IMG/VR virus record: IMGVR_UViG_3300042885_001472
Origin: a virus
Lineage: Duplodnaviria > Caudoviricetes
Strand: one strand, 5' to 3'
DNA: 64,000 bases
Shown: piece by piece, positions 7,672 through 56,190 of the stretch
How positions within the stretch are numbered: the stretch's first letter is position 1
How the letters are laid out: each line of letters starts with the position of its first letter
Position numbers and translations under genes: made by a program
The notes under the pieces: model-generated
Database searches by the model: none
The model's input: only the letters and a program-made list of their open reading frames with translations
What the model was told of the DNA's origin: nothing

Positions 7672-8574
7672 ATGGAAGTGATTATGAATAACATTAAAAA
7701 AGATATTATAAGTTGGTGGAGTGGAGGAATTACCTCACCGGTGGCTTGTAAGTTATCAATAGATATGTTCGGTATTGATCGGGTTAGAATTATAATGATT
7801 GATACTCAGAACGAACATCCGGATACATACCGGTTTAAAACTGATTGTGAGAAATGGTATGGTTTACCAATTGAAATTATTACTGGTATTGGTGAAAAAT
7901 ATGGTAATATTTTTGATGTCTGGAGAAAACATAAGTCATTGAATACAGCCACTGGTGCGATATGTTCTACAAATTTAAAAAGATTAGTTCGTGAAAAATG
8001 GGAGAAAGATAATCCTAATTATACACATCAAGTATTTGGGTTTGAATTTGAAAAGAAAGAATTTAATAGAGCTTTATCAATGTCATTAAATCATGGTGAA
8101 AGGGTTAAAGCGATCTACCCTTTATTAATGTTTGGGTATGATAAAAAACAATGTCTTAAGATTGTTGATGACGCTAAGATTGAAGTTCCAAAAATGTATC
8201 AGTTAGGTTTCCAAAATAATAATTGTTTTTCAACTGGATGTGTTCAGGGTGGGATTGGTTACTGGTAAAAGATGTGTAGAGACTTCCCAGATAAATTTGA
8301 GGTTATGGCTAATTTAGAACATGAATTAACAGAATTAAAGGGTGAACCGGTAACAATGTTAAAAGATCAATCTAATTTAGCTAAAGAATCGTCTAAAATA
8401 GATAAAAAATCAAACTTAGTTTTTCTTAAAAAACATCCATTATATCCAAACCATAAATGTTTAGATGATATGTCCCAAAGGAGTGTTGAACCTCTTTTTG
8501 AGTGTAATGGGATGTGTGGTATAAATGATATGAATGAAAGAACCAGTACTGAAAAAGAGATCAATTACGATTAA
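7672..8574 (+). pseudogene. PAPS-reductase-like (PP-loop) protein interrupted by in-frame TAA at 8266-8268
   Basis: SWWSGGITS, NNNC..GCVQGGIGYW*KMCRDFPDKF; the two track ORFs are in the same frame. Confidence 0.7.
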
Positions 8575-8910: not shown

Positions 8911-9060
8911 ATGACAGTAAAACAATTAATTGATAACTTATCAAATATTGATGGTGAAAAGATTAGTCGTAAAAATATTCAAGCACATTCTTTTAAAGAA
9001 ATACGAAAATCTCACAATATTCACAAAATGCTCGTGGTGGGTTCTTTTAATTGGTTATAA
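8911..9060 (+). CDS. 49-aa ORF ending in the first attC core; eroded distal cassette or junction
   Basis: Manual translation MTVKQLIDNLSN..GSFNWL*; stop lies in TTATAAC. Confidence 0.35.
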   Translation: MTVKQLIDNLSNIDGEKISRKNIQAHSFKEIRKSHNIHKMLVVGSFNWL

Positions 9061-9110
9061 CGTTTTGCGGCTAATAGACGTTTCTTAATGTTTATTAGGT
9101 GCGGTTATAA
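9055..9110. repeat. attC-like site 1 (56 bp)
   Basis: TTATAAC gttttgcgg ctaata..tattag gtgcg GTTATAA. Confidence 0.85.
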
Positions 9111-9167
9111 GCTGACGGTTACGAATGTTACTATGAAAAATTAATTTAAAAAAAAACAAATATAAAA

Positions 9168-9446
9168 ATGGAAAATAAGACAGCATTAATTGCAAAAAGA
9201 GATGAGTTACAAAAAGAAATTTATCTTTTAAATACTAAAATAAAAGAGCTTAATAAGATTGAATTATTTGAAAAATACAATGTTAAAATGGGGGACGAAA
9301 TTACTATTGTAGGTAAAAAAGGAGTAATAACAAATAACTGTGGTAGTTATCTTTACTATACCGCTTATAAAAAAGATGGGACTTTAGGCACTAGAGAAAG
9401 TAGGATTTGGAGTTTTGACACGTTTACAAAAACCGTTTCAAAGTAG
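9168..9446 (+). CDS. cassette 1 hypothetical protein
   Basis: ORF between sites 1 and 2. Confidence 0.75.
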   Translation: MENKTALIAKRDELQKEIYLLNTKIKELNKIELFEKYNVKMGDEITIVGKKGVITNNCGSYLYYTAYKKDGTLGTRESRIWSFDTFTKTVSK

Positions 9447-9457
9447 CTACCGTTTGC

Positions 9458-9554
9458 TTATAACGTTTTGCAGCTTTAAGAAGTGGCTGCCTAAAAATTA
9501 CTTCATTTGACAAACAATGCTTATGGCAGACATTTTTTAAAGGTGCTGTTATAA
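9458..9554. repeat. attC-like site 2 (97 bp)
   Basis: TTATAAC gttttgcag ctttaa..ttaaag gtgct GTTATAA. Confidence 0.85.
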
Positions 9555-9574
9555 GCTGATAAAAATTACGGATT

Positions 9575-9772
9575 ATGACCGCAAAAGAATTTGTTTTAGA
9601 AAAATGTCCAAAGGCAAGAGCTGAAAGGCAAGTGTCAGGTAGAATTAAAGGTATGCAGACTGTATATTATTTAATTCGTGAACGAGGGCAAACAATGTAT
9701 ATGGCAGAAGGCAAGAGCGAAAGTAACGCTTGGGTAAATGCTAAAAAGTTTCTATTGGAACGTGAACAGTAG
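9575..9772 (+). CDS. cassette 2 hypothetical protein
   Basis: ORF between sites 2 and 3. Confidence 0.75.
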   Translation: MTAKEFVLEKCPKARAERQVSGRIKGMQTVYYLIRERGQTMYMAEGKSESNAWVNAKKFLLEREQ

Positions 9773-9786
9773 TAATTTTTATTTCC

Positions 9787-9871
9787 CTATAACGGACGGA
9801 GCTTGTGGCTTAAATAAACCAAACAATGCTATTTTAACACTTCCGCTTTTTGCCACAAGGTTGTGTTAGTT
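9787..9871. repeat. attC-like site 3 (85 bp)
   Basis: CTATAAC ggacggag cttgtggc..gccacaag gttgt GTTAGTT; nearly identical to site 10. Confidence 0.85.
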
Positions 9872-9901
9872 TTTAGGCACTTAATTAAACATAAAAAGAA
9901 A

Positions 9902-10276
9902 ATGGAAAAAATAGAAATAGAATTATCAGAAAGCAAATTAAACACATTAAAAAGTGTAGAATATTTAAAAATAAATGATTTAGAGTTTGTTTCAAAAAAT
10001 AAATGCGCTCAATTATGTGCTGATTTTGCAATTGAACATCAAAAAAAGTCACTTAGGAAAACAGCATTAATCGGCTTAATCATAATGTTTTCATCATTTA
10101 TTTTTGCAATAATTGAAACGTTATACTTTGGCTCAAATTGGTATCCACAATCAAAAAATGAAGTAGTGTGTGATTATATAGCTTTATACACTTGCGGATT
10201 AGGCACTTCTTTATTTGGTTTTTGTATCATTAAGCAATTCATAATTGAAGTGTCTGAGAATATTAAGAGTGCTTGA
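9902..10276 (+). CDS. cassette 3 membrane protein (2 TM)
   Basis: ATG 9902 preferred over the track GTG at 9863, which overlaps the attC core. Confidence 0.7.
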   Translation: MEKIEIELSESKLNTLKSVEYLKINDLEFVSKNKCAQLCADFAIEHQKKSLRKTALIGLIIMFSSFIFAIIETLYFGSNWYPQSKNEVVCDYIALYTCGLGTSLFGFCIIKQFIIEVSENIKSA

Positions 10277-10363
10277 AACTAACGGACGAAGCTAACATAC
10301 GTTTGTAAACCACACCTAGCATTTAACCATTATAACTCAAATGTTTGTTAGGTTGTGTTACCA
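10277..10363. repeat. attC-like site 4 (87 bp)
   Basis: AACTAAC ggacgaag ctaaca..tgttag gttgt GTTACCA. Confidence 0.85.
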
Positions 10364-10415
10364 CACGTTTTGAATACTTAAATTAAATATCAATAGAAAA
10401 TTAAAATAAAAAATT

Positions 10416-10670
10416 ATGACACCAAAAGAGAAAGCAACCGAATTATATCAAAAATATTACAATAACTATGGTTACTATGGAATACCAGTAGATGCCGTTA
10501 AACATAGTAAAGAATGTGCTAATATTTGTATTGATGAAATACTGAAATCACAACCAATTGAACCAAATAATAGTAAACCCTTTGGAGTTAAAATACAATC
10601 TGTTAGGCAAAACTTTACTGATGCTGATGAATATTGGAAATTAGTTAAACAAGAACTTGAACTTCTTTAG
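10416..10670 (+). CDS. cassette 4 phage-type hypothetical protein (MTPKEKA.EL)
   Basis: ORF between sites 4 and 5. Confidence 0.75.
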   Translation: MTPKEKATELYQKYYNNYGYYGIPVDAVKHSKECANICIDEILKSQPIEPNNSKPFGVKIQSVRQNFTDADEYWKLVKQELELL

Positions 10671-10690
10671 AATATCCAAAACAAAATGAG

Positions 10691-10821
10691 TGGTAACGTT
10701 TTGCAGCCTTATTTAGTGCGGGCTTAAAAGCACTATGTTAATTTAAAACTGAATATTATGAATAGTAAAAATGTTTCCAACGAAGCCGAAAAACCCGCAT
10801 TGAATAAGGGTGCTGTTAGTG
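10691..10821. repeat. attC-like site 5 (131 bp)
   Basis: TGGTAAC gttttgcag ccttatt..aataagg gtgct GTTAGTG. Confidence 0.85.
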
Positions 10822-10985
10822 GCAGTTATTGTGTGAGAAAACACGATTTGTTTGCTGTAACATATCAAAAAGTAGCTGAAAATTTAAGTAAAGATGAAGC
10901 TGAAAGTATTAAAAACGAAATGCAAACAAAGTCAATAGAGGAGTGTGGTTGCCCTGTACCTGTATTTTTTGTAAGTGAAGTATAA
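10758..10985 (+). CDS. cassette 5 protein starting inside attC 5
   Basis: MNSKNVSNEAEKPALNKGAVS is encoded by the attC. Confidence 0.7.
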   Translation: MNSKNVSNEAEKPALNKGAVSGSYCVRKHDLFAVTYQKVAENLSKDEAESIKNEMQTKSIEECGCPVPVFFVSEV

Positions 10986-10989
10986 TTAC

Positions 10990-11069
10990 CACTAACGGCT
11001 GGATATTTAATCTGTTTGGCTGTCTGAGCAATTATGTAATAGCCAAATTGATTGAATATTTTGTTAGTT
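10990..11069. repeat. attC-like site 6 (80 bp)
   Basis: CACTAAC ggctggatatttaatc..gattgaatatttt GTTAGTT. Confidence 0.8.
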
Positions 11070-11107
11070 TACAGTAAAATAAACCAAATAAATTAAAATA
11101 AAAAAAT

Positions 11108-11497
11108 ATGAACAGAGAAATTAAGTTTAGAGCATGGAATGGTAAGGAAATGCGATGCGATGTTAATATAAATGATGGCAAACCTGTAAGGAAAGGCTAT
11201 CAATGGTTTAATGAATCAAATGATATTCATAACTCAGAGCCTATGCAACTTATAGGGTTAAAGGACAAAAATGGAGTTGAAATTTATGAAGGTGATATTT
11301 TAGAAGATAAAAATAAAAACTTTATGTATAATGTATTTAGGGTTGCAGGAGGTTTTGCAATAAATACGCATCAAAATGACTTTAATAGAAAAACTCCATT
11401 TTACACATCTTTTGATATGCAAACATCTTCATATATTAATGGAAATTGTGAGGTAAAAGGTAATATTTATCAACCTATATTAACATTAGAAAAGTAA
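11108..11497 (+). CDS. cassette 6 YopX family protein
   Basis: REIKFRAW..MQLIGLKDKNGVEIYEGDI..EVKGNIY. Confidence 0.9.
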   Translation: MNREIKFRAWNGKEMRCDVNINDGKPVRKGYQWFNESNDIHNSEPMQLIGLKDKNGVEIYEGDILEDKNKNFMYNVFRVAGGFAINTHQNDFNRKTPFYTSFDMQTSSYINGNCEVKGNIYQPILTLEK

Positions 11498-11520
11498 ACA
11501 TCAATGGTTTATTTTATTGA

Positions 11521-11600
11521 AACTAACGGCATCAAGCTAAAAGCTGACCGCCTTTATAAGCGGTTTGGTGATGGCGGTTTGATTTTAGGTTGGGTTATAA
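11521..11600. repeat. attC-like site 7 (80 bp)
   Basis: AACTAAC ggcatcaag ctaaaa..ttttag gttgg GTTATAA. Confidence 0.85.
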
Positions 11601-11651
11601 GCTGACGGTTACGAATGTTACTATGGAAAATTAATTTAAAAAAACATACAG

Positions 11652-11996
11652 ATGGAAAACAAAGGAGAATATTTGGGTTTATGTAATTTAAGCTCTTGTA
11701 CAACACACAAACCAGCAACTTATTATAATTACGGTACATCAAAATACTATTGTAAAGAATGTGCTGAAAGATTAAATTCTGATGAATATAATCAACGTGA
11801 TGCAATGCGTATGTTTGGACATGATTTATGTATTGAGGAATCAGTAAGACCTAAACCATTAAATGAAATTATTGAAAAACAAAATTACCTTCAATTTACT
11901 GAACCTTACATTATGGAATTAGCTTCTGATTTTAGACCAACAGTTAGACATAGCCCTTATATTAAATCTGAACCAAGTCAACAAAATATAATTTAG
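11652..11996 (+). CDS. cassette 7 Cys-containing hypothetical protein
   Basis: CNLSSC..YCKEC..HDLC. Confidence 0.7.
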   Translation: MENKGEYLGLCNLSSCTTHKPATYYNYGTSKYYCKECAERLNSDEYNQRDAMRMFGHDLCIEESVRPKPLNEIIEKQNYLQFTEPYIMELASDFRPTVRHSPYIKSEPSQQNII

Positions 11997-12087
11997 CTAA
12001 TCCAGACGAAGGATATGCTGATTTTGATAATGCACAAAAAGAGTGTAATAAGCTAAACAAAAATGTTTCAAAGTAGCTACCGTTTGC

Positions 12088-12141
12088 TTATAACGTCTGA
12101 TGATAAACAATCGTTTTAATGTTGTTTATCATTTGTTATAT
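12088..12141. repeat. attC-like site 8 (54 bp)
   Basis: TTATAAC gtctg atgataaacaa..ttgtttatcat tt GTTATAT. Confidence 0.8.
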
Positions 12142-12164
12142 TTAGTAAAAAATAATTTATACAT

Positions 12165-12344
12165 ATGAAATACCAAGCACTTAAAAAAGAATATTTTGCA
12201 GTTTATGAAAAAGAACCAAGACATCAGAATGAAAAAAATGGTGTAATACTTTCACCATATAATACGAAAGAAGATGCTGAAAAAGCGAGAGTTAAATATG
12301 GTTATGGTGATGATAATTATTATGTAGATAAACTCATAAATTAA
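12165..12344 (+). CDS. cassette 8 hypothetical protein (59 aa)
   Basis: Manual translation MKYQALKKEYFAVYEKE..YVDKLIN*. Confidence 0.65.
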   Translation: MKYQALKKEYFAVYEKEPRHQNEKNGVILSPYNTKEDAEKARVKYGYGDDNYYVDKLIN

Positions 12345-12354
12345 TTTTTATTGA

Positions 12355-12410
12355 ATATAACGTTTTGCAGCTAATAGCCGTTTCTTAATGGATATTAGGT
12401 GCGGTTATAT
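12355..12410. repeat. attC-like site 9 (56 bp)
   Basis: ATATAAC gttttgcag ctaata..tattag gtgcg GTTATAT; near copy of site 1. Confidence 0.85.
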
Positions 12411-12466
12411 TTAGTTGCCTAGAATAGCAATGCGGAGTGATAATTTAATAATTAAAAATAAAACAA

Positions 12467-12868
12467 ATGAAAACATTAACCATAAAACAACCGTGGGCTA
12501 GTTTGATTGCAAACGGAATAAAGGACATTGAAAATAGAACTTGGAAAACAAATCATAGAGGTAAAATTTATATTCATGCTGCTCAAATAAATTCAAAGGA
12601 TTGGGAGGACTTAATAAATTTACCCGATAATCAAAGAAATGAATTTTTTGAATTTGTTAAACACAAAATACTTAACACAAAATCGAATAGTAGCATTATT
12701 GGCGAAGTTGAAATAGTAGATTGTGTTCAAGATAGTAAATCAATTTGGGCTTTACCAAACCATTATCATTGGGTTTTAAAAAATGCTATAATTTACGATG
12801 AGCCTATTTTAAACGTAAAAGGTAAATTATCATTGTGGGAGTACACAGGTGCGGTGGGAGGCAATTGA
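12467..12868 (+). CDS. cassette 9 ASCH domain protein
   Basis: LTIKQPWASLIANGIKDIENRTW..RGKIYIHAA..VKGKLSLW. Confidence 0.9.
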   Translation: MKTLTIKQPWASLIANGIKDIENRTWKTNHRGKIYIHAAQINSKDWEDLINLPDNQRNEFFEFVKHKILNTKSNSSIIGEVEIVDCVQDSKSIWALPNHYHWVLKNAIIYDEPILNVKGKLSLWEYTGAVGGN

Positions 12869-12953
12869 ATATAACGGACGGAGCTTGTGGCTGAAATAAA
12901 CCTAACAATGCTATTTTAACACTTCCGCTTTTTGCCACAAGGTTGTGTTAGTT
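12869..12953. repeat. attC-like site 10 (85 bp)
   Basis: ATATAAC ggacggag cttgtggc..gccacaag gttgt GTTAGTT. Confidence 0.85.
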
Positions 12954-12987
12954 TACAGTAAAATAAACCAAATTAAAATAAAAAAAT

Positions 12988-13377
12988 ATGAATAGAAAAA
13001 TTAAATTTAGAGCTTGGGATAGTTTTTATAAAATGATGATACATTCATCTTATAAAGATTTTTCGGTATTATCAGAATTTTTTAAAGAATTAGAAGATAG
13101 AAAAGACAATGATTGCAAAATAATGCAATTTACAGGATTAAAGGATAAAAATGGAGTTGATATTTATGAGGGCGACATTATTAAATGCTCATTAGCTACT
13201 GAACCCGAAGATAAAGGATTTATTTGTTTATGGCGAAATTTTAAATGGGAATTTTGTAATGTTAGATTTAAAGATGACGAATCATTTAATTTAACCGACT
13301 TTGATTATTTAACTGTAAAAACAGAAGTAATTGGAAACATATATGAGAATGCGGATATGTTAACATCAGAAAAGTAA
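12988..13377 (+). CDS. cassette 10 YopX family protein
   Basis: RKIKFRAWD..MQFTGLKDKNGVDIYEGDI..EVIGNIYEN. Confidence 0.9.
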   Translation: MNRKIKFRAWDSFYKMMIHSSYKDFSVLSEFFKELEDRKDNDCKIMQFTGLKDKNGVDIYEGDIIKCSLATEPEDKGFICLWRNFKWEFCNVRFKDDESFNLTDFDYLTVKTEVIGNIYENADMLTSEK

Positions 13378-13400
13378 ACATCAATGGTTTATTTTATTGA

Positions 13401-13479
13401 AACTAACGGTTGGATATTGGCTTAGTTTGGCTTTCTAACCACTTATATAATGCCAAATTGAGCCAATATTTTGTTAGTA
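13401..13479. repeat. attC-like site 11 (79 bp)
   Basis: AACTAAC ggttggatattggct..agccaatatttt GTTAGTA. Confidence 0.85.
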
Positions 13480-13561
13480 TTTCGTTTACTTTTACTTTTT
13501 TAGGGTAGCATTAGAAAATTAAACTATCTGATTTATAGCACTTTACAAAAATAATGTAAAA

Positions 13562-13597
13562 TATATTTGTGTCCATCAAATACATTATGTACATTTA
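13562..13597 (+). promoter_or_regulatory. cassette 11 internal promoter
   Basis: TTTG 13566-13569, 20 nt, TACATTTA 13590-13597; TATATTTG at 13562 also fits. Confidence 0.5.
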
Positions 13598-13629
13598 CAC
13601 TCAGATAACAACAACTAAAAAATAAGATT

Positions 13630-13785
13630 ATGAAATTATTAAATTTAACAGTAAGAAACATTAAAGGAGAATTAGCAACTGGATGTTATAGCCACACTAA
13701 AAATAAGGTTAAATTTTACGTTGTTGTTTGGAATAATACTCAATTTTTTGGTACTGATTTAGAAACAATTTTTAACACTTTATAA
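13630..13785 (+). CDS. cassette 11 ORF a (51 aa)
   Basis: Manual translation MKLLNLTVRNIKGELATG..TIFNTL*. Confidence 0.55.
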   Translation: MKLLNLTVRNIKGELATGCYSHTKNKVKFYVVVWNNTQFFGTDLETIFNTL

Positions 13786-13786
13786 T

Positions 13787-14011
13787 ATGAAGATTAAACA
13801 AGAAAAAATAGAAATAAAAGTAAATATATTTTTTTTAGAAGAAAATGAAGATGTTTTATCTGAGATAAATAAAGCAATTAATAAAAAAACATTTACAGTA
13901 ATTGTAAAAAATAAAGTTTATCATGTTGCTGGACATGGAATGTTAAAAGATTTAGATAATTTAAAAGATGCTTTATTAGATATTAAGTTTTTAACAAATG
14001 CCTTATTATGA
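13787..14011 (+). CDS. cassette 11 ORF b, hypothetical
   Basis: ORF track. Confidence 0.65.
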   Translation: MKIKQEKIEIKVNIFFLEENEDVLSEINKAINKKTFTVIVKNKVYHVAGHGMLKDLDNLKDALLDIKFLTNALL

Positions 14012-14250
14012 AAACTCCAATATCACAAACAACAGCTAAAACAAACGCTAAAAAATACAATGATTATTTCACAGCTAATGAACAAACTTATAAAACAATG
14101 AAAAGAAGTAAACGCATAGAATTAACGGAAAGCACTATTAAGTATTTAGCAAAAAAAGCTATTGACGAAGGGACAAGTTTTAAACCTTATGTCGAACAAA
14201 TTTTGGAAAGTTTAGCCAATACACAGGTGGGCAGGAAAAAAGAAAAGTAA
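14008..14250 (+). CDS. cassette 11 ORF c, ribbon-helix-helix-like regulator
   Basis: KRIELTESTIKYLAKKAIDEGTSFKPYVEQILE. Confidence 0.55.
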   Translation: MKTPISQTTAKTNAKKYNDYFTANEQTYKTMKRSKRIELTESTIKYLAKKAIDEGTSFKPYVEQILESLANTQVGRKKEK

Positions 14251-14255
14251 ATGGA

Positions 14256-14349
14256 TACTAACAGTCGGCAATATGAAACGGTTGCCTTATAAGACGTTTC
14301 AAAATATAACTCAGTTTTCTGGCAACTGTTTTTATATTGCTTGTTATAG
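14256..14349. repeat. attC-like site 12 (94 bp)
   Basis: TACTAAC agtcg gcaatat..atattgc tt GTTATAG with inner gttgcc/ggcaac stem. Confidence 0.85.
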
Positions 14350-14367
14350 CCAGTTAATTTTAACGAT

Positions 14368-14598
14368 ATGTACAAAATAGTAAAAGAAATTCACACTTAT
14401 AAACAAGGTAGGATAAAATTTAGAATACACGAAAGATTTTTATGGAGATGGATACCAAGTGAAAGTTTTTCTGAATATGAAACCTATGAATTGGCAGAAA
14501 AAGCAATTATAGAAAAACTGAACGGCAAACATGGTGGTATTGTTGAATTGAAAAATGATGTTTATAAATTTTATCCGTATTCATTACCGATGCCTTAA
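14368..14598 (+). CDS. cassette 12 hypothetical protein
   Basis: ORF between sites. Confidence 0.75.
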   Translation: MYKIVKEIHTYKQGRIKFRIHERFLWRWIPSESFSEYETYELAEKAIIEKLNGKHGGIVELKNDVYKFYPYSLPMP

Positions 14599-14602
14599 TT
14601 GG

Positions 14603-14678
14603 CTATAACGGTTTGCAGCTAATAGACGGGCGGTTGAAACATAGTAGATGTCCGCCTGTTTATTAGGTGCTGTTATAG
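14603..14678. repeat. attC-like site 13 (76 bp)
   Basis: CTATAAC ggtttgcag ctaata..tattag gtgct GTTATAG. Confidence 0.85.
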
Positions 14679-14731
14679 GTAGGTTGTAACGAATGTTTAA
14701 TTAATACACAATATAAAAAAATAATAATAAT

Positions 14732-14914
14732 ATGATAGAAATAATAATTTGGCTAATTTTTTTCCCATTAGCAACAACAATAAATAGATACTTTTTAGAT
14801 AGAAATAAAAAGGATAGAAATGAGGAAGTAACATCTAAAGAAGTAAAAGACAAATTAGATTTTTTTGAGCTTGCCGTTTTTGTGATAGTGCTTATAATTT
14901 TAATCAAACGCTAA
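14732..14914 (+). CDS. cassette 13 small membrane protein
   Basis: two hydrophobic segments. Confidence 0.65.
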   Translation: MIEIIIWLIFFPLATTINRYFLDRNKKDRNEEVTSKEVKDKLDFFELAVFVIVLIILIKR

Positions 14915-14942
14915 AATGTTTCTAAATGATACCACAACTTAC

Positions 14943-15023
14943 CTATAACGTTAAGAAGCCTTGCTTAGTTTGGCTTTTTAACACACATAGCACTTGCCAA
15001 ATTGAGCAAGGGTTGTGTTAGTA
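14943..15023. repeat. attC-like site 14 (81 bp)
   Basis: CTATAAC gttaagaag ccttgct..agcaagg gttgt GTTAGTA. Confidence 0.85.
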
Positions 15024-15068
15024 TTAGGTGGCTTAAAAGTGAATATTAATTTTAAATAAAAATAAAAA

Positions 15069-15278
15069 ATGGAATACGGAATATTAAAAGTAGGTTGCAA
15101 AGTAAAATATACTGATGAAGCTAAAAAAGAATTGCCAACAGTTTTTAAAGATATAACAAAGGATAAAGTAAAAACTGTAAAATGGATTAGTAAAAATCAA
15201 GAGAACTGTGATTTTGTGGATGGTGACAGTTGTGATATTTACTGGTTAGAACTCGTAGAAGATTCTAAAGCCACTTGA
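15069..15278 (+). CDS. cassette 14 hypothetical protein
   Basis: ORF between sites; stop lies in the terminal inverted repeat. Confidence 0.75.
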   Translation: MEYGILKVGCKVKYTDEAKKELPTVFKDITKDKVKTVKWISKNQENCDFVDGDSCDIYWLELVEDSKAT

Positions 15279-15367
15279 TACTAACGGTATCAAGCTAAAA
15301 GCAGTTGCTAAACCAACCTAATATATTTGAGCGTTAACTCGCAAATTGATTTTAGGTTGTGTTAGGA
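15279..15367. repeat. attC-like site 15 (89 bp)
   Basis: TACTAAC ggtatcaag ctaaaa..ttttag gttgt GTTAGGA. Confidence 0.85.
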
Positions 15368-15394
15368 TTAGTTAAATTTTAAAAATAAAAAATT

Positions 15395-15589
15395 ATGTAT
15401 ATAACAAAAAGCGGTAAAGTTGTAATGTATAATAATGATGGTTACGATTATACTGAAGTTTTTAATAGTGATAGAAATTGGGAAGATAAATCAGGTATGT
15501 ACTTAAACTACTGTAAAAATTGCGAAAAACATTTTTTTGGTAATAAGTATAGAATAATATGCAAAAAATGTAGTAACGGTAAAATTTAA
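15395..15589 (+). CDS. cassette 15 zinc-ribbon protein
   Basis: CKNC..CKKC. Confidence 0.7.
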   Translation: MYITKSGKVVMYNNDGYDYTEVFNSDRNWEDKSGMYLNYCKNCEKHFFGNKYRIICKKCSNGKI

Positions 15590-15593
15590 TTGA

Positions 15594-15653
15594 ACCTAAC
15601 GGTTTGCAGCTAATAGACGTTTTTCTTAAAATGGATATTAGGTGCTGTTATAG
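15594..15653. repeat. attC-like site 16 (60 bp)
   Basis: ACCTAAC ggtttgcag ctaata..tattag gtgct GTTATAG. Confidence 0.85.
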
Positions 15654-15696
15654 GTAGGTTGTAACGAATGTTTAATTAATACACAATATAAAAAAT

Positions 15697-16044
15697 ATGG
15701 AAATAAGCGAATTAAGATTAGGTAATTATGTAATGTATATTGATAATTATATATTGCCAGTTACTACCGATACATTTTATTGGATATCCGAATGTGTTAG
15801 AACTGAAGATGATTACAAACCAATAGAATTAACAGAAGATATACTTTTTAAATGCGGGTTTAAATTGGCTATTGATGAAAATGTTTATACGTTAGATGAT
15901 ACAATTGAATTAACGCAAACTGATTATGGAAATAGTTTTTATTTTATGGGCAATTTTATAAAATCAGATATAAAATATTTACACCAATTACAGAACTTGT
16001 ATTTTGCAATAACTGATATTGAGTTAAATGTATCAAAAATATAA
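15697..16044 (+). CDS. cassette 16 'ELRxGN' phage family protein
   Basis: ELRLGNY..KPIELTE..HQLQNLYF; paralogue of 55436-56606 genes. Confidence 0.8.
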   Translation: MEISELRLGNYVMYIDNYILPVTTDTFYWISECVRTEDDYKPIELTEDILFKCGFKLAIDENVYTLDDTIELTQTDYGNSFYFMGNFIKSDIKYLHQLQNLYFAITDIELNVSKI

Positions 16045-16064
16045 ATAACAAAGCACCAACTTAC

Positions 16065-16140
16065 TTATAACGTTTTGCAGCTAATGGCTGGCGGCTCTAA
16101 GCGGTTATATAATGCCGCTTGACATTAGGTGCTGTTATGT
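16065..16140. repeat. attC-like site 17 (76 bp)
   Basis: TTATAAC gttttgcag ctaatg..cattag gtgct GTTATGT. Confidence 0.85.
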
Positions 16141-16201
16141 TGGTGTGTCGGAATGTGTGTGAGGCAGTTTTATTTTATTAATTTTTAAAAAAGCGAAGGA
16201 A

Positions 16202-16384
16202 ATGAATATACCAAATAGTTACGCAAAAGCAATAGTAGCCGACATGAAGGCTAAAATAAAAAAACATGAAAAGACTTGTTATTACAATGATAATTTATGT
16301 GAAGGTAAAGTTAGTAGAGTAAATTCACATCATGTTTTTTTATGTGAAAAATGCTTGAATGAATACAATAATATAAAAGATTAA
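16202..16384 (+). CDS. cassette 17 ORF a, Cys-rich
   Basis: ORF track. Confidence 0.65.
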   Translation: MNIPNSYAKAIVADMKAKIKKHEKTCYYNDNLCEGKVSRVNSHHVFLCEKCLNEYNNIKD

Positions 16385-16387
16385 ACT

Positions 16388-16660
16388 ATGAAAAAAGCAG
16401 AAGAAATACTAAAACAAAACTGCATAAAGCAACAATGGGACAAACAAATACTAACAGATGACTTTACATTGGAAGTTACTATACCATCAATGGAAGAATA
16501 CGCTAATCAATTCAAAGTAAAAATGTGGGGTTGCTATGCTTGTGGTAAATTACTTAGAATTTATGCTACACAAAAAGAAGCGGATGAAGCAAGAACAAGA
16601 TGGAGTACCGAATGTATTGTTATAGTAAAGGAAGTAGTTGTTGGTGACGGGGGTGCGTAG
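16388..16660 (+). CDS. cassette 17 ORF b, hypothetical
   Basis: ORF track. Confidence 0.7.
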   Translation: MKKAEEILKQNCIKQQWDKQILTDDFTLEVTIPSMEEYANQFKVKMWGCYACGKLLRIYATQKEADEARTRWSTECIVIVKEVVVGDGGA

Positions 16661-16689
16661 GCTTTTAAAAATTAATAAAATAAAATTGA

Positions 16690-17008
16690 ACATAACGGTT
16701 GCGGATATATGAATGTAAAAAATTAATAATCAGAACGATGATAACAACACAAAATTTAACAGAATTAGGTTTTAGTGAGATACTTAATGTATTCACTGGA
16801 AAACAAGTTTGGGTTTTAGGTGAAGAAGATAGAGAGATATGTGGAAACCCTTGTAGATTACCAATACTTTATTACAACATAGAAACCCAAACTTGTAAAG
16901 TAGTTAGGGGTGAATTTTGTGTTGTTCAACGAGAATGTAAATCAGAAGAAGAAATTAGAAAGTTTGTAGAATCTATTAATTTTTTATTTCATATATCCGT
17001 TGTTATAA
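16690..17008. repeat. attC-like site 18 (319 bp, mostly coding)
   Basis: ACATAAC ggtt gcggatatatgaa..ttcatatatccgt t GTTATAA. Confidence 0.75.
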
Positions 17009-17097
17009 ATAGTAAAAAACCTATCGAACAAGTATTATCCGAAGCGATTAAAGAATCTTATGATAAGATAAAAGACAATTTAGAACCACCACTTTAA
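16738..17097 (+). CDS. cassette 18 protein encoded mainly inside attC 18
   Basis: ATG 16738; reads through GTTATAA 17002 as HISVVINSKK. Confidence 0.7.
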   Translation: MITTQNLTELGFSEILNVFTGKQVWVLGEEDREICGNPCRLPILYYNIETQTCKVVRGEFCVVQRECKSEEEIRKFVESINFLFHISVVINSKKPIEQVLSEAIKESYDKIKDNLEPPL

Positions 17098-17110
17098 GGT
17101 TTTTTATTGT

Positions 17111-17187
17111 TTATAACGGTTTGCAGCTAATAAATCGGGCGATGGAAATATATGTAATTTCCGCCTGTTTATTAGCTGCTGTTATAG
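17111..17187. repeat. attC-like site 19 (77 bp)
   Basis: TTATAAC ggtttgcagctaata..tattagctgct GTTATAG. Confidence 0.85.
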
Positions 17188-17231
17188 GTAGGTTGTAACG
17201 AATGTTTAATTGAAACTTTAATATAAAAAAT

Positions 17232-17510
17232 ATGGAAAATATAAGTTTAAAAGATAAAGTAAGCGATATACTTGAATATTGGGAAAATGATTATGATGAA
17301 ACTTGTGATGCTACCGCTATTTCAAAAATAGAAGCATTGATAAAAGAGGAAAATCAAAAATTGAAAAAAGAAAATGATATTTATAAATCTTTTATATGTC
17401 ATGTAAAAAATAGTTTTAAAATGATTAATGATGATATAAGTGAAATAGATGTTTATAGAAGTTTAAGGACAAGAGCTGATGATATTTTAAATAACAATTT
17501 TCCTTTTTAA
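17232..17510 (+). CDS. cassette 19 hypothetical coiled-coil protein
   Basis: ORF between sites. Confidence 0.75.
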   Translation: MENISLKDKVSDILEYWENDYDETCDATAISKIEALIKEENQKLKKENDIYKSFICHVKNSFKMINDDISEIDVYRSLRTRADDILNNNFPF

Positions 17511-17548
17511 TTAACACAAAAAATGTTTCTAAATGATACACAACTTAC

Positions 17549-17657
17549 CTATAACGCTTTGCAGCTTTGAGCCGTTTACCAAATATTAATAACAAAAAAA
17601 TAAATAACGAATATGAATAACAGAAAAATAAAAAATGGCTTAAAGGTGTTGTTAGTG
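17549..17657. repeat. attC-like site 20 (109 bp)
   Basis: CTATAAC gctttgcag ctttgagcc..ggcttaaag gtgtt GTTAGTG. Confidence 0.85.
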
Positions 17658-17843
17658 GCTGTTTTATTTGTAAAATGTACTACAAATAAATTGATTATTA
17701 CTGAATGTCAAAGAGCTAATTTAACAAGCCTTTTTATTCAAAAAATGGAAATTGGAAAAGTTTATAAAATCAATTTATGTGATGAGTATTTTAACTACTC
17801 ATTTGATGGCGAAAAATATACTTTGGAACGATATAAAAAATAG
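17613..17843 (+). CDS. cassette 20 putative lipoprotein starting inside attC 20
   Basis: MNNRKIKNGLKVLLVAVLFVKC signal-peptide-like N-terminus. Confidence 0.6.
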   Translation: MNNRKIKNGLKVLLVAVLFVKCTTNKLIITECQRANLTSLFIQKMEIGKVYKINLCDEYFNYSFDGEKYTLERYKK

Positions 17844-17844
17844 C

Positions 17845-17929
17845 CACTAACGTTCCTCAAATATGAGTAGTAAATTTTTCTATTGAGATTTGGAAAATCA
17901 AAATTTATTTCTTATATTTGTTGTTATAT
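17845..17929. repeat. attC-like site 21 (85 bp)
   Basis: CACTAAC gttcct caaatatgag..cttatatttg tt GTTATAT. Confidence 0.8.
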
Positions 17930-17968
17930 TTAGTTTTCAGTTTGTTTTACCTTAAAAAAATATAAATT

Positions 17969-18214
17969 ATGATTAAAAAGAATGAAGAACAATTTGATAG
18001 TGGTGGTATAATACTTAAACACACTTTTCTTTTAGGTTTCGATGAACTAAGAATACCAACCGAAGATATTACAGAAGATATGATAGATACATATGTAAAA
18101 GAAAAATCATCAGAATTTGAATGGGAATTTAAGTTTTTTCTGATGATGAAATTAGGTTATATTGGGAAAGAAGGTGATATTTGGATAAAAGAACCAAAAC
18201 AAACTGAAAATTGA
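17969..18214 (+). CDS. cassette 21 hypothetical protein
   Basis: C-terminal KQTEN* is encoded by the cassette terminal inverted repeat. Confidence 0.75.
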   Translation: MIKKNEEQFDSGGIILKHTFLLGFDELRIPTEDITEDMIDTYVKEKSSEFEWEFKFFLMMKLGYIGKEGDIWIKEPKQTEN

Positions 18215-18344
18215 ATATAACGTTTTGTATTGGCGAAGAAGCGGAATTTTACCACTGAAGTTGATACGAAGCACCAATGCTTATTTACCTACAAATGTTC
18301 ATACGAAGCACTAAAACCGCTTTTTTGCCAATACTTTGTTAGTG
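18215..18344. repeat. attC-like site 22 (130 bp)
   Basis: ATATAAC gtttt gtattggc gaagaagcgg..ccgcttttttgccaatac ttt GTTAGTG. Confidence 0.85.
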
Positions 18345-18412
18345 GCTGATGCGGATTTTTAGCACTCATTTTCAGTAAGTTAGAAAATATTTTCAAAATA
18401 AAAGAAAATAAA

Positions 18413-18444
18413 TTTGGTTTGTATTGTTTTTGTATATACATTTG
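18413..18444 (+). promoter_or_regulatory. cassette 22 promoter facing the integrase
   Basis: TTTG 18413-18416, 20 nt, TACATTTG 18437-18444 (Bacteroidetes consensus). Confidence 0.7.
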
Positions 18445-18470
18445 CGTTACAATAATTAAATAAAAACAAA

Positions 18471-18749
18471 ATGACAAACGAACAATTAAACGCTATGAGC
18501 GTATCAGATTTAAGAGAATTAAATTCAAGAGTAATAGCTTATATTAAGTTTAAAAACTCAATGGCTAGTGGTGAAAACAAATCCAAAATATCAGTAGGTA
18601 TGACGGTAACGATTAAAACCAATAATCCTCTATTATTAGATTCTGTTTTTACTTTGGAAAAGATAAATAAAAAAAATGCTGTTTGTAGAGATATTAAAAC
18701 TCAACAAACTTGGAATGTTTTAATTTGTAACGTTATAGAAAAACCATAA
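18471..18749 (+). CDS. cassette 22 ORF a, hypothetical
   Basis: ORF track. Confidence 0.75.
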   Translation: MTNEQLNAMSVSDLRELNSRVIAYIKFKNSMASGENKSKISVGMTVTIKTNNPLLLDSVFTLEKINKKNAVCRDIKTQQTWNVLICNVIEKP

Positions 18750-18916
18750 TGGAAAAGAAAAAACGAGATGTAAGCCTTCCAAAAAGGTTTAATTCAGAAG
18801 ATGTAAATAAATGGCAAGAACAAGCTAATTTAACAACTGGTGGTAATCTTACCTTATGGATGGAAAACACATTGAATAACGCTGTAAAGAAGCAAAATGT
18901 CAAATCGAAGCAGTAA
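18749..18916 (+). CDS. cassette 22 ORF b (55 aa), RHH/CopG-like
   Basis: Manual translation MEKKKRDVSLPKRFNSEDVNKWQEQAN..GNLTLWMENTLN; TAATG coupling. Confidence 0.55.
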   Translation: MEKKKRDVSLPKRFNSEDVNKWQEQANLTTGGNLTLWMENTLNNAVKKQNVKSKQ

Positions 18917-18928
18917 CGTAGCATTTGC

Positions 18929-18960
18929 CACTAACTATTATATATAAACAAGTATAGTCT
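18929..18960 (-). other. attI-like site
   Basis: Lone CACTAAC core with no partner arm, about 46 bp upstream of the integrase; bottom strand GTTTATATATAATA-GTTAGTG. Confidence 0.6.
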
Positions 18961-18981: not shown

Positions 18982-19782
18982 TTGAACCAAAAAATTATAA
19001 AGATTTGTGAAGAAAAGTTTATATATTTAAACTATTCTCCAAGAACAAAGGATAACTATTTAATCCACATAAAATACTTTCTAAAATCTTTAGGGGATAA
19101 ACAAATCATCCATTGTAACTCTAAAGACTTCCAGTCTTATTTGGATAATTATAACTTCACATCTGTTTCACAACAAAACCAGATTATTAACTCAATCAGA
19201 TTCTTATATAAATTTGGGTTAAATAAAAAATACGATAAAGTTTCATTCAAACGACCAAAATCTGAAAAGAAGTTACCCCAGGTAATTGATCATTATCATA
19301 TAAAAGAGTCGTTATCTAAAATTAATAATCTTAAACACAAAACAATCTTATCTATAACATATTCAGTTGGGTTAAGAGTTTCTGAGGTTATAAATCTAAA
19401 AATAGAAGATATTGATTCAAGGAGAATGATCATCCATATTAAAAACGCTAAAGGTAGGAAAGATAGGATAGTTCCACTTTCTCAAAACATATTAGATTTA
19501 TTGAGGGTTTACTATAAAGAATATAGACCGGTGGAATACTTATTTAATGGTCAAAATAATCTACAATATACTTCTACTAGTTGTAATCAAATTGTTAAAA
19601 AACATTTAGGTGAAAAATATCATATCCACCAGTTAAGACATAGTTGTGCGACAAATCTCCTTGAAAATGGTACTGATTTAAAATTAATACAAAAAATATT
19701 AGGTCATTCTTCAGTAAAAACGACAGAAATTTATACACACGTTTCAAATCAAATGTTGAGTAAAATAAATCTACCAATTTAG
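18982..19782 (+). CDS. tyrosine recombinase (integron-integrase-like, no IntI insertion)
   Basis: TTG start; YSPRTKDNY SAM-like N-terminus; GLRVSE (R), AKGRKDR (K), HQLRH, LGHSS, TEIYT catalytic set. Confidence 0.92.
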   Translation: MNQKIIKICEEKFIYLNYSPRTKDNYLIHIKYFLKSLGDKQIIHCNSKDFQSYLDNYNFTSVSQQNQIINSIRFLYKFGLNKKYDKVSFKRPKSEKKLPQVIDHYHIKESLSKINNLKHKTILSITYSVGLRVSEVINLKIEDIDSRRMIIHIKNAKGRKDRIVPLSQNILDLLRVYYKEYRPVEYLFNGQNNLQYTSTSCNQIVKKHLGEKYHIHQLRHSCATNLLENGTDLKLIQKILGHSSVKTTEIYTHVSNQMLSKINLPI

Positions 19783-53249: not shown

Positions 53250-53555
53250 TTACTTTATATTATTTTTAATATAATCATTCCAGTCTTTATTCATTTTATC
53301 TAATTCCTCACTTATTAATCTAAGTGAATATGAATTCCAATAACCATCATTATCCTTTGAGAACCAAAAATTGTAATATCCACTTTCATCTTGTTCAGCG
53401 TCACCTAAAAAGATGTCATTATAATAGACATGAAATGATGGAGTATTTGATGTTGTTTTTTCAGTTCTAATCATTAATAATTTTTTTAAAATCGTTAAAC
53501 ATATCTTCCACATATTTTTTGGCCTCTTCAATGGTATCAAATTTTTCATACCCAA
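53250..53555 (-). CDS. hypothetical protein
   Basis: ORF track; true start probably at MIRTEK. Confidence 0.55.
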   Translation of the reverse strand: MGMKNLIPLKRPKNMWKICLTILKKLLMIRTEKTTSNTPSFHVYYNDIFLGDAEQDESGYYNFWFSKDNDGYWNSYSLRLISEELDKMNKDWNDYIKNNIK

Positions 53556-53808
53556 CTATACCTTGTGAGCTGGTGGGGAAATAAGGACTAACATGGAATG
53601 AATTACATACACCAGTCCTTCTATTATCCAAAATCGGCATTTCATCCTGTTTCACAAAACCGGTTATCCAAGCGATCTGTAAACCATTATAATAACCTAT
53701 TCTCGCCCAACGACCAATGTCATCGGTATTTTCATTATCTGAATACCTTATACTCCAAGAAAAACCTTTTTTATCAAGAAGGAGTTTTTTATTTATCTTG
53801 TGTTTCAT
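53467..53808 (-). CDS. hypothetical protein
   Basis: ORF track. Confidence 0.6.
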   Translation of the reverse strand: MKHKINKKLLLDKKGFSWSIRYSDNENTDDIGRWARIGYYNGLQIAWITGFVKQDEMPILDNRRTGVCNSFHVSPYFPTSSQGIVGYEKFDTIEEAKKYVEDMFNDFKKIIND

Positions 53809-55851: not shown

Positions 55852-56190
55852 CTATTTTAATTTAAGTTCTTCTCCTGTTAATACAAAGTATAAGTTCTGT
55901 AATTGATGGACATATTCAATTTTAATGTTAAGTAAATCTCCAAGGTCAAATGTTTTATTATCTTTATCATAAACTAAAGAACTATCTAATACTTGTTTTC
56001 TAAGAGTTGAGTGAACATCCCAATCTGATGTCCAAAATTCAAATTTCAACAACCATTCCTCAGTTAATGGAATTGGTTTACACCAACTCCTTTCAGCCTC
56101 AAATACTTCTTGTATAGTCCATGGGGTAACAATACAAGGTTCTCCATTATTATCATAAAAATTTCCTACCCTTAATTCTTGTACTTTCAT
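55852..56190 (-). CDS. 'ELRxGN' family protein, copy 2
   Basis: ELRVGN..PIPLTEEWLLKF..VHQLQNLYF. Confidence 0.75.
   Translation of the reverse strand: MKVQELRVGNFYDNNGEPCIVTPWTIQEVFEAERSWCKPIPLTEEWLLKFEFWTSDWDVHSTLRKQVLDSSLVYDKDNKTFDLGDLLNIKIEYVHQLQNLYFVLTGEELKLK

Follow-up and report, generated by a model that had tools for sequence, protein, structure and literature searches.

How do gene cassettes come by the genes that they carry? This question is raised by an integron-like gene array in an uncultured lake phage (Duplodnaviria; Caudoviricetes; IMG/VR record IMGVR_UViG_3300042885_001472), of which a stretch of 64,000 nucleotides (nt), hereafter the window, was analysed. The array, at positions 9058-18935, consists of 22 TAAC...GTTA hairpins and 22 cassettes. 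Several of these cassettes have nearly the same start and the same end around different genes. Our results show that such pairs of ends, which we call frames, enclose many unrelated genes (the cargos), that the start and the end of a cassette are complementary to each other, that the junctions between frame and cargo lie within a few nucleotides of the start and stop codons, and that native, non-cassette copies of some cargos exist. We see about an even chance that these cassettes were made by replacement or capture of the cargo inside a reusable frame, through homology between short A-runs.

Frames were defined by an 18-nt stem, a GAATG motif at leader positions 19-23, an A-rich leader, a tail of type T1 (GTTTC[A/T]AA...) or T2 (AAAAATATAAATAAC...), and a complementary stem before the terminal TAAC. 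By this definition, cassettes 1 and 7 have frame A and cassettes 13, 16 and 19 have frame B. The remaining 17 cassettes of the window, including 6 and 10 with their YopX genes, have other frames. Our cassette borders were placed independently, and they agree with the numbering and coordinates of the initial annotation. Seven cassettes are given here with their parts (ORF, open reading frame):

9104-9464: cassette 1
9104-9154, plus strand: frame A leader of cassette 1, with GTTA core, stem extension, GAATG core and A-rich 5' untranslated region; 50/51 nt identical to 11594-11644
9435-9464, plus strand: frame A tail of cassette 1, with GTTTCAAAGTAG, stem extension and TAAC core; 30/30 nt identical to 12065-12094
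11063-11527: cassette 6
11063-11137, plus strand: YopX-frame leader of cassette 6, taking in the first codons of the ORF
11483-11527, plus strand: YopX-frame tail of cassette 6, taking in the last 4 codons; 44/45 nt identical to 13363-13407
11594-12094: cassette 7
11594-11644, plus strand: frame A leader of cassette 7, identity to the leader of cassette 1
11652-12064, plus strand: cargo of cassette 7, a mosaic
12065-12094, plus strand: frame A tail of cassette 7, identity to the tail of cassette 1
12947-13407: cassette 10
12947-13017, plus strand: YopX-frame leader of cassette 10, 91% identical to the leader of cassette 6
13363-13407, plus strand: YopX-frame tail of cassette 10, 98% identical to the tail of cassette 6
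14672-14949: cassette 13
14672-14721, plus strand: frame B leader of cassette 13, shared
14913-14949, plus strand: frame B tail of cassette 13, type T1, shared with cassette 19
15647-16071: cassette 16
15647-15696, plus strand: frame B leader of cassette 16, 50/50 nt identical to the copy in contig L013
16032-16071, plus strand: frame B tail of cassette 16, type T2 (AAAAATATAAATAAC...), a type present also in frames A and C
17181-17555: cassette 19
17181-17231, plus strand: frame B leader of cassette 19, shared
17520-17555, plus strand: frame B tail of cassette 19, type T1, shared with cassette 13

The initial annotation had described cassettes 1 and 7 as sharing both ends around unrelated proteins. 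This is fully supported by our comparison, in which the first 51 nt agree at 50/51 positions and the last 30 nt at 30/30, the interiors align with only ~51% identity (the noise level), and BLASTP gave no alignment between the two cargos. Likewise, cassettes 6 and 10 share their ends (leader 91%, tail 98%) around YopX paralogues that have diverged to 66% identity in the interior DNA and 33% in the proteins. In cassettes 13, 16 and 19, the first 31 nt match exactly, with ~50 nt in common overall, and BLASTP found nothing meaningful between cargos 16 and 19, but the long tail of 36-37 nt is common to 13 and 19 only; cassette 16 has the other tail type and shares just the last 15 nt with them. The MENK start of proteins 1 and 7 is indeed shared, yet it derives from the cargo and not from the frame, as non-cassette homologues of cargo 1 begin MET(K/I). 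Chance is ruled out for the shared ends, because shuffling the sequence 100 times gave no match to the 30-nt tail or the 31-nt leader, for which 2 and 3 matches, respectively, were observed. Remote homology of the cargos is ruled out as well, both by BLASTP and by a profile-profile comparison (hhalign) of two frame-A cargo families, which returned a probability of 0.2%.

Frames A and B are widespread in other contigs. When exact 24-nt leader patterns were used as probes, 9 IMG/VR contigs proved to carry frame A and 10 to carry frame B; a further 20 contigs with frame A came from metagenomes, and the leader of this frame is present in >25 public contigs. After clustering, the IMG/VR set contained 15 instances of frame A in 14 contigs with 11 cargo families, and 13 instances of frame B with 11 families. 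With the metagenome contigs included, the count rises to ~21 cargo families for frame A; for frame B it is at least 11. Together with three pairs of native and cassette copies, this is the metagenome collection that the initial annotation had called for. Frame-cargo units recur in independent assemblies (for instance, a cargo beginning MKDW in contigs L002, L005, L009, L065 and L074), and identical units from several samples are therefore not artefacts. Within the same cargo lineage, leader and tail are 95-100% identical (91-98% for the YopX frame), compared to 81% or 66% for the cargo.

The frames are modular. GAATG at leader positions 19-23 is common to frames A, B and C, tail types T1 and T2 reassort among these three frames, and in contig L008 a stem of frame A is fused to a leader of frame B. 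The cargo family of cassette 16 occurs in frames B and C and in a third type, with proteins that are ~30% identical. Most other cassettes have private frames, which makes A, B and C unusually prolific backbones. The commonest ('type I') attC lies upstream of ~70-80% of the A and B cassettes, in a sample that was partly fetched with that attC. The type I pattern was also found (L077-L080) in three contigs of Bacteroidota metagenome-assembled genomes and once in an uncultured Shewanella assembly. Its presence in the Bacteroidota contigs fits either a Bacteroidota host or phage contigs that were binned with bacterial genomes, and the carriers of frames A, B and C are probably a lineage of uncultured phages infecting Bacteroidota. 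In the leaders of all three frames, GAATG starts a mini-ORF that reads Met-Leu-Leu-stop or Met-Phe-Asn-stop (9122-9135, 14690-14703 and the same place in cassettes 7, 16 and 19). In contigs L001 and L010 the stop of this mini-ORF is gone, and its ATG opens a long ORF. The mini-ORF may be a leader peptide or a coincidence.

Why should a particular start accompany a particular end? In all 22 cassettes, the start is an inverted repeat of the cassette's own end over 8-26 nt. The repeat spans 15-26 nt in 21/22; in cassette 17 it is limited to the 8-nt core. In cassette 1, the tail at 9435-9464 is the inverted repeat of the leader stem and also supplies the final codons, Val-Ser-Lys-stop, of the cargo ORF at 9168-9446. 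At base 11, the start invariably has G, which faces T in the end; at base 9, T facing G is frequent. Both are G.T pairs on the plus strand and would be A.C mismatches on the other strand. Each attC was folded with 26-nt flanks, using either the cassette's own tail (circle context) or the tail of the previous cassette (array context). Mean hairpin energy was -23.2 kcal/mol in the circle context versus -16.2 kcal/mol in the array context (p = 1e-7), a gain of ~7 kcal/mol, and folding was biased to the plus strand (-23.2 versus -17.2 on the minus strand). According to these folding models, the outer 15-26 nt of the frame form the outermost stem of the recombination hairpin in a looped-out or circular cassette. 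A given start always travels with a given end because both halves form this stem, and leader-stem and tail-stem clusters agree in 337/400 pairs. The tail and the leader around one attC in the arrays never belong to the same frame.

The hairpins and the recombinase at the end of the array indicate which unit moves:

9058-18341, plus strand: 22 attC-like hairpins between the cassettes, each assigned to the cassette on its right (reversed-cassette reading)
18982-19782, plus strand: Xer-like tyrosine recombinase of 266 amino acids at the array end; best match of the XerA/XerD type

A folding-energy scan proved too noisy for detecting the hairpins, and a stem-alignment parser, which recovers 22/22 sites, was used instead. 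Like attC sites, the 22 TAAC...GTTA sites are imperfect hairpins with paired inner boxes. Their spacers are asymmetric (5 nt versus 1-3 nt). Parsing of the window together with 48 contigs of IMG/VR yielded 173 cassettes. Where two cassettes carry the same cargo, 17 pairs have the upstream attC in common but differ in the downstream attC, and the opposite applies to 3 pairs. ORFs cross the GTTA side of hairpins, while none crosses the TAAC/G side. Furthermore, arrays terminate in ...TAAC joined to non-attC DNA; in the window, the TAAC core of the last cassette (18932-18935) abuts such DNA. The shared upstream attCs, the ORFs that cross the GTTA side only and the array ends at TAAC together argue that the mobile unit is an upstream attC plus a body, with exchange at TAAC. 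As in integrons, discrete mobile units thus appear in different contexts, with exchange at a single core. Two caveats apply: many same-cargo pairs differ at both flanking attCs, and repeats of ~100 nt could mislead assemblers on the order of neighbours.

This unit is the reverse of the classical one. The attC that travels with a gene sits upstream of that gene, unlike in a classical integron, where it is found at the gene's 3' end. Every cassette ORF lies on the plus strand, facing the recombinase, instead of pointing away from attI/intI with expression from a platform promoter. The recombinase itself aligns to TIGR02249 in two stretches with 150.6 bits, which is under the cutoff of 265, and it is not an IntI-type integrase with the extra domain for recognition of folded attC. 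The initial annotation contained neither the reversal of the cassettes nor the fact that their ends are inverted repeats in the hairpin.

Several observations on ORFs and hairpins stand beside this. Three ORFs (10758-10985, 16738-17097 and 17613-17843) begin in an attC-like hairpin loop and extend across the right arm of the hairpin into the body that follows; the hairpin at 16693-17005 measures 313 nt, most of which is coding. A whole class of cassettes in related contigs, with bodies of 110-190 nt, likewise have an ORF that begins upstream, in a long attC loop. In contig L006 (~7980-8240), the end core TAAC of a frame-A cassette is mutated to TAAA, and this cassette is possibly no longer excisable.

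Where, then, does the frame stop and the cargo begin? In pairs with the same frame and different cargos, identity on the 5' side is lost at a median position of +7 to +18 nt relative to the ATG, a figure raised by A-rich first codons, and on the 3' side it resumes at a median position of -1 to -2.5 nt relative to the last base of the stop codon. Random breakpoints, which would have spoken against cargo replacement, are therefore ruled out. The frame even encodes the end of the protein: ten cargo families in frame A and three in frame B, all unrelated, end in-frame with K[T/N]VSK-stop. In three further families the stop is in the VSK frame, one codon (3 nt) ahead of the tail. The tail has stop codons in two of the three reading frames. 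In two homologous frame-A cargos a 9-nt patch of the tail differs, so that one ends ...NID-stop and the other ...NVSK-stop. Cassette 7 is a mosaic, in which the leader and the ~105 first codons match the intact cargo of 131 amino acids in contig L004 (81% nt identity in the interior), and the last ~100 nt before the common tail are foreign. Its ORF stops at 11996, and another reading frame runs as ...NVSK-stop into the tail.

Native copies allow the junctions to be compared with genes outside the array. Three frame-A cargo families have non-cassette homologues, located in hairpin-free operons with gaps of 1-5 nt or overlapping genes:

Family of cassette 1: native copies in contigs L051 and L053, protein identity 67-78%
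Family of the L007 cargo: native copies in contigs L054, L055 and L056, protein identity 72-77%
53467-53808, minus strand: native copy of the L006 family in a packed operon of the same phage, 76% protein identity to the frame-A cargo of L006

In all three families, native and cassette copies are homologous from the ATG, to within 0-4 codons, up to an A-run, AAAA[ACT][CT], that stands right before GTTTCAAAGTAG in the cassette. The native proteins end ...KNQ-stop, ...KN-stop, ...KTK-stop, ...KKK-stop or ...KIIND-stop, versus Val-Ser-Lys-stop in the cassettes. On the upstream side, the frame's own A-run stops 5-10 nt before the ATG. Only 22% of the 102 non-array ORFs in the window have an AAAA[ACT][CT] run in their last 5 codons. 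A terminal run in three of three families would thus occur by chance with a probability of ~0.01, which is suggestive, though the cases are few. A related-locus search with the native gene at 53467-53808 returned only the known cassette copy and one further copy of it. When the neighbours of the native copies were compared with array contigs, some had homologues in related phages, but adjacency was not conserved. The minus strand of the window between 47000 and 61500 holds packed small genes without hairpins. These include paralogues of cassette cargos, namely 53467-53808 and 55852-56190 (76% identical to the frame-A cargo of L006 and 33% to the family of cassette 16, respectively), and array and non-array accessory genes therefore share one pool.

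These results might be explained as follows. A frame comprises two core boxes (an initial GTTA... and a terminal ...TAAC) with 8-18 inverted-repeat bases, a 5' leader of ~35 nt with GAATG at 19-23, an A-rich untranslated stretch and an A-run 5-10 nt before the ATG, and a short 3' tail of type T1 or T2. In a looped-out or circular cassette the stem halves pair with each other, which makes the attC-like hairpin longer, and leader and tail must therefore remain matched. The segment from the leader A-run to the pre-tail A-run would be swapped for an ordinary gene of a packed phage operon, with the short A-runs as the homology. Template switching or illegitimate recombination would bring this about, probably independently of the integrase. 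The gene would lose its native stop codon, and the frame would give it three last codons, Val-Ser-Lys, and a stop. The Xer-like recombinase would then move the finished unit of upstream attC plus body by exchange at TAAC. The initial annotation had likewise suggested that cargo is replaced by short-homology recombination. The three native/cassette pairs agree with this at their 3' junctions, which fall in an A-run of 5-6 nt; we infer the direction of the event, from gene into frame, solely because the tail is common to many cargos. The role given here to microhomology and the enzymology are likewise inferred. An alternative route, in which the integrase acts at secondary GTT sites (AATGTT in the leader core and the T1 tail), was rejected, since the 5' junction lies ~30 nt downstream of the leader GTT. 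The most far-reaching version of this proposal is that self-complementary frames capture operon genes ORF-precisely via A-run microhomology, that the integrase only moves the finished unit, and that cassette genesis is thus seen 'in the act'. We consider this version possible but doubtful.

A number of points weigh against cargo capture. There are only three native/cassette pairs, and at 67-78% protein identity their junctions are resolved to a few nucleotides and not to the base. A-runs are common in this DNA with 28% guanine plus cytosine (27-30% over the window), and AAAA occurs in the last 5 codons of 42% of the ORFs. Neither an empty frame (leader joined to tail) nor a half-converted intermediate was found in the loci of ~100 contigs; the short bodies met in this search were ORFs starting in the upstream attC loop. 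About one third of cassette 7, at its 3' side, has been replaced, and a search for the donor of this part found none. The bias towards the VSK-stop reading frame could reflect selection for a C-terminal tag and not the mechanism of joining. Finally, all related sequences are metagenome assemblies, in which repeats of ~100 nt (type I attC plus leader) could misjoin neighbours. Such misjoins are unable to fake leader-cargo-tail units, however, because these units recur across samples.

Other explanations of the frames place the change elsewhere. Possibly, the ends were converted and not the cargo. Gene conversion or homologous recombination would then homogenise the ends and spread a good frame onto existing cassettes, with leader and tail kept as functional parts of the hairpin and of translation initiation, comparable to the PeSL elements of T4-type phages. 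We regard this as fairly improbable, even though it accounts for ends that are 91-100% identical around interiors of 66-81% in the same cargo lineage, for leader and tail modules that hybridise and reassort, and for one cargo family in three frames; stems worth ~7 kcal/mol are also plausibly selected. Yet conversion requires a prior cassette for each cargo, whereas the nearest other relatives of three families are in hairpin-free operons. Moreover, the stem would be disrupted if only one end were converted, and intermediates of this kind did not appear among stem clusters that agree in 337/400 pairs. The loss of the native stop codon is left unexplained. A further reading is selection on the peptide: the C-terminal Lys-(Thr/Asn)-Val-Ser-Lys could be a functional tag for stability, targeting or packaging, of use to many small phage proteins, and such a tag could contribute to the reading-frame bias. 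Thirteen unrelated cargo families in the same reading frame are well above the expected one in three, and frames A and B use different codons for the same peptide. We nevertheless consider a tag very unlikely, as other cargos stop before the tail or read ...CF-stop, a variant tail reads ...NID-stop, T2 tails and native homologues lack the peptide, and the shared leader would need a separate explanation.

Alternatively, cassettes might form in situ. A hairpin module without cargo, consisting of tail, attC and leader and derived from an ORF-less circle opened at an A-run, would insert between packed genes, giving a stop to the gene on its left and a leader to the gene on its right; two insertions would make a cassette, and shuffling would follow. 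With gaps of 1-5 nt or overlaps in the native operons, an insertion would clip the last codons, and a tail with stops in two of the three reading frames would suit this role. The end of the leader and the start of the tail are both A-runs and would be adjacent in an empty module, and the multi-gene cassettes 11, 17 and 22 still retain operon-like internal junctions. Against this, none of the ~100 contigs contained an empty frame, the tail and leader around one attC are never of the same frame, and the neighbours of native copies differ from those of cassette copies. We therefore think in situ making unlikely. That the cassettes simply diverged from a single ancestor, or that the assembly is at fault, would be conceivable, since small phage proteins change fast and repeats can mislead assemblers. 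This seems extremely improbable to us, given cargos without sequence or profile similarity that come from distinct native families with their own lengths and cysteine patterns, flanks that are 95-100% identical, and identical units assembled independently from several samples. Capture of the cargo inside a reusable frame remains the reading that we put forward.

The surroundings of the array are those of a phage. Phage-type genes in the window include a lysin, a DNA methyltransferase, a Tad6 homologue and YopX, and neither the array nor a stretch of 12 kb near it had a megablast match among 50,697 phage records. Just past the recombinase and outside the array, the ORF at 21262-21978 matches the Tad6 family (inhibitor of type I Thoeris; E = 3e-16), so that anti-defence genes adjoin the array. 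The array end itself varies. In many relatives (L004, L061, L066, L001, L044, L045 and others) TAAC is followed by a conserved TACT[C/T]GCTA..., while the window differs from them in having TAAC followed by TATTATATATAAAC. Homologues of the recombinase (41-45% identical) were found in only some of the contigs with the TACT[C/T]GCTA... end, and there may be two lineages of docking sites at array ends. On the other side of the array, a PAPS-reductase-like gene (7672-8574) is interrupted by an in-frame TAA at 8266-8268, leaving two ORFs in the same frame (7672-8268 and 8272-8574). A homologue of 281 amino acids is the intact cargo of a cassette in contig L029, and the tblastn match spans the stop. 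The split gene could be a pseudogene or a recoding event.

The genesis of cassettes becomes testable here, since some twenty genes without relation to one another are found in one frame, and three of them can be compared with native copies. Should cargo capture of this kind also hold for bacterial integrons, with reused frames of attC plus flanks and loss of the native stop, it would answer a long-open question on cassette formation and offer a natural system with before/after pairs. The finding also shows that phages keep part of their accessory gene pool in exchangeable, expression-ready units, which bears on the turnover of accessory genes. The frame may also be a useful natural design for gene-swapping modules.

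How does this array compare to known systems? The origin of integron cassettes has been called 'largely unknown' (PMC5371416), and the homogeneity of attC sites in chromosomal arrays has been linked to local formation of cassettes by an unknown process (PMC5371416, PMC8352920). In line with chromosomal integrons such as those with Vibrio cholerae repeats, a near-identical site module occurs here on many unrelated small ORFs, with imperfect hairpins, AAC/GTT cores and circular cassettes. Unlike in chromosomal integrons, the host is a phage, the genes are reversed towards the recombinase, and the recombinase lacks the IntI insertion. Also unlike them, the module exceeds the attC on both sides of the gene, with a stem of 8-18 bp, a leader, and the last codons plus stop, and the attC interior is coupled to it only loosely. 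To our knowledge, identity of this kind outside the repeat distinguishes the phage array from the Vibrio cholerae repeats.

The group IIC-attC intron model also addresses the joining of attC and gene. In this model the attC is added at the 3' end of a transcript, which requires an intron-encoded reverse transcriptase. The window ORFs scanned included no gene for such an enzyme, and, unlike in that model, the junctions here are ORF-precise on both sides.

The closest parallels in phages differ in other respects. In the PeSL elements of T4-type phages, short conserved regulatory sequences flank small ORFs that are unrelated to one another, in variable parts of the genome, and recombination between the flanks swaps ORFs and yields mini-circles (PMC2839356, PMC4122927). 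Those flanks are sigma-70 promoters and terminators that act in homologous recombination, whereas the flanks described here are halves of a folded site beside a tyrosine recombinase. A sigma-70 promoter and terminator scan, with a tool that does not cover Bacteroidota-type promoters, gave 57 promoter-like sites versus 62 expected, none of them tied to leaders. Clusters of attC sites (CALINs) that separate small ORFs have been described in virulent phages, including a phage of the Bacteroidota host Polaribacter (PMC9892861). These clusters have 2-4 sites by classical attC models, without a dedicated recombinase or an analysis of frames, compared to 22 sites and reusable frames in our array. What sets the present array apart from these systems is a module that extends past the attC into the last codons of the gene, the reversed cassettes, the Xer-like integrase, and the native copies with which the cassettes can be compared.

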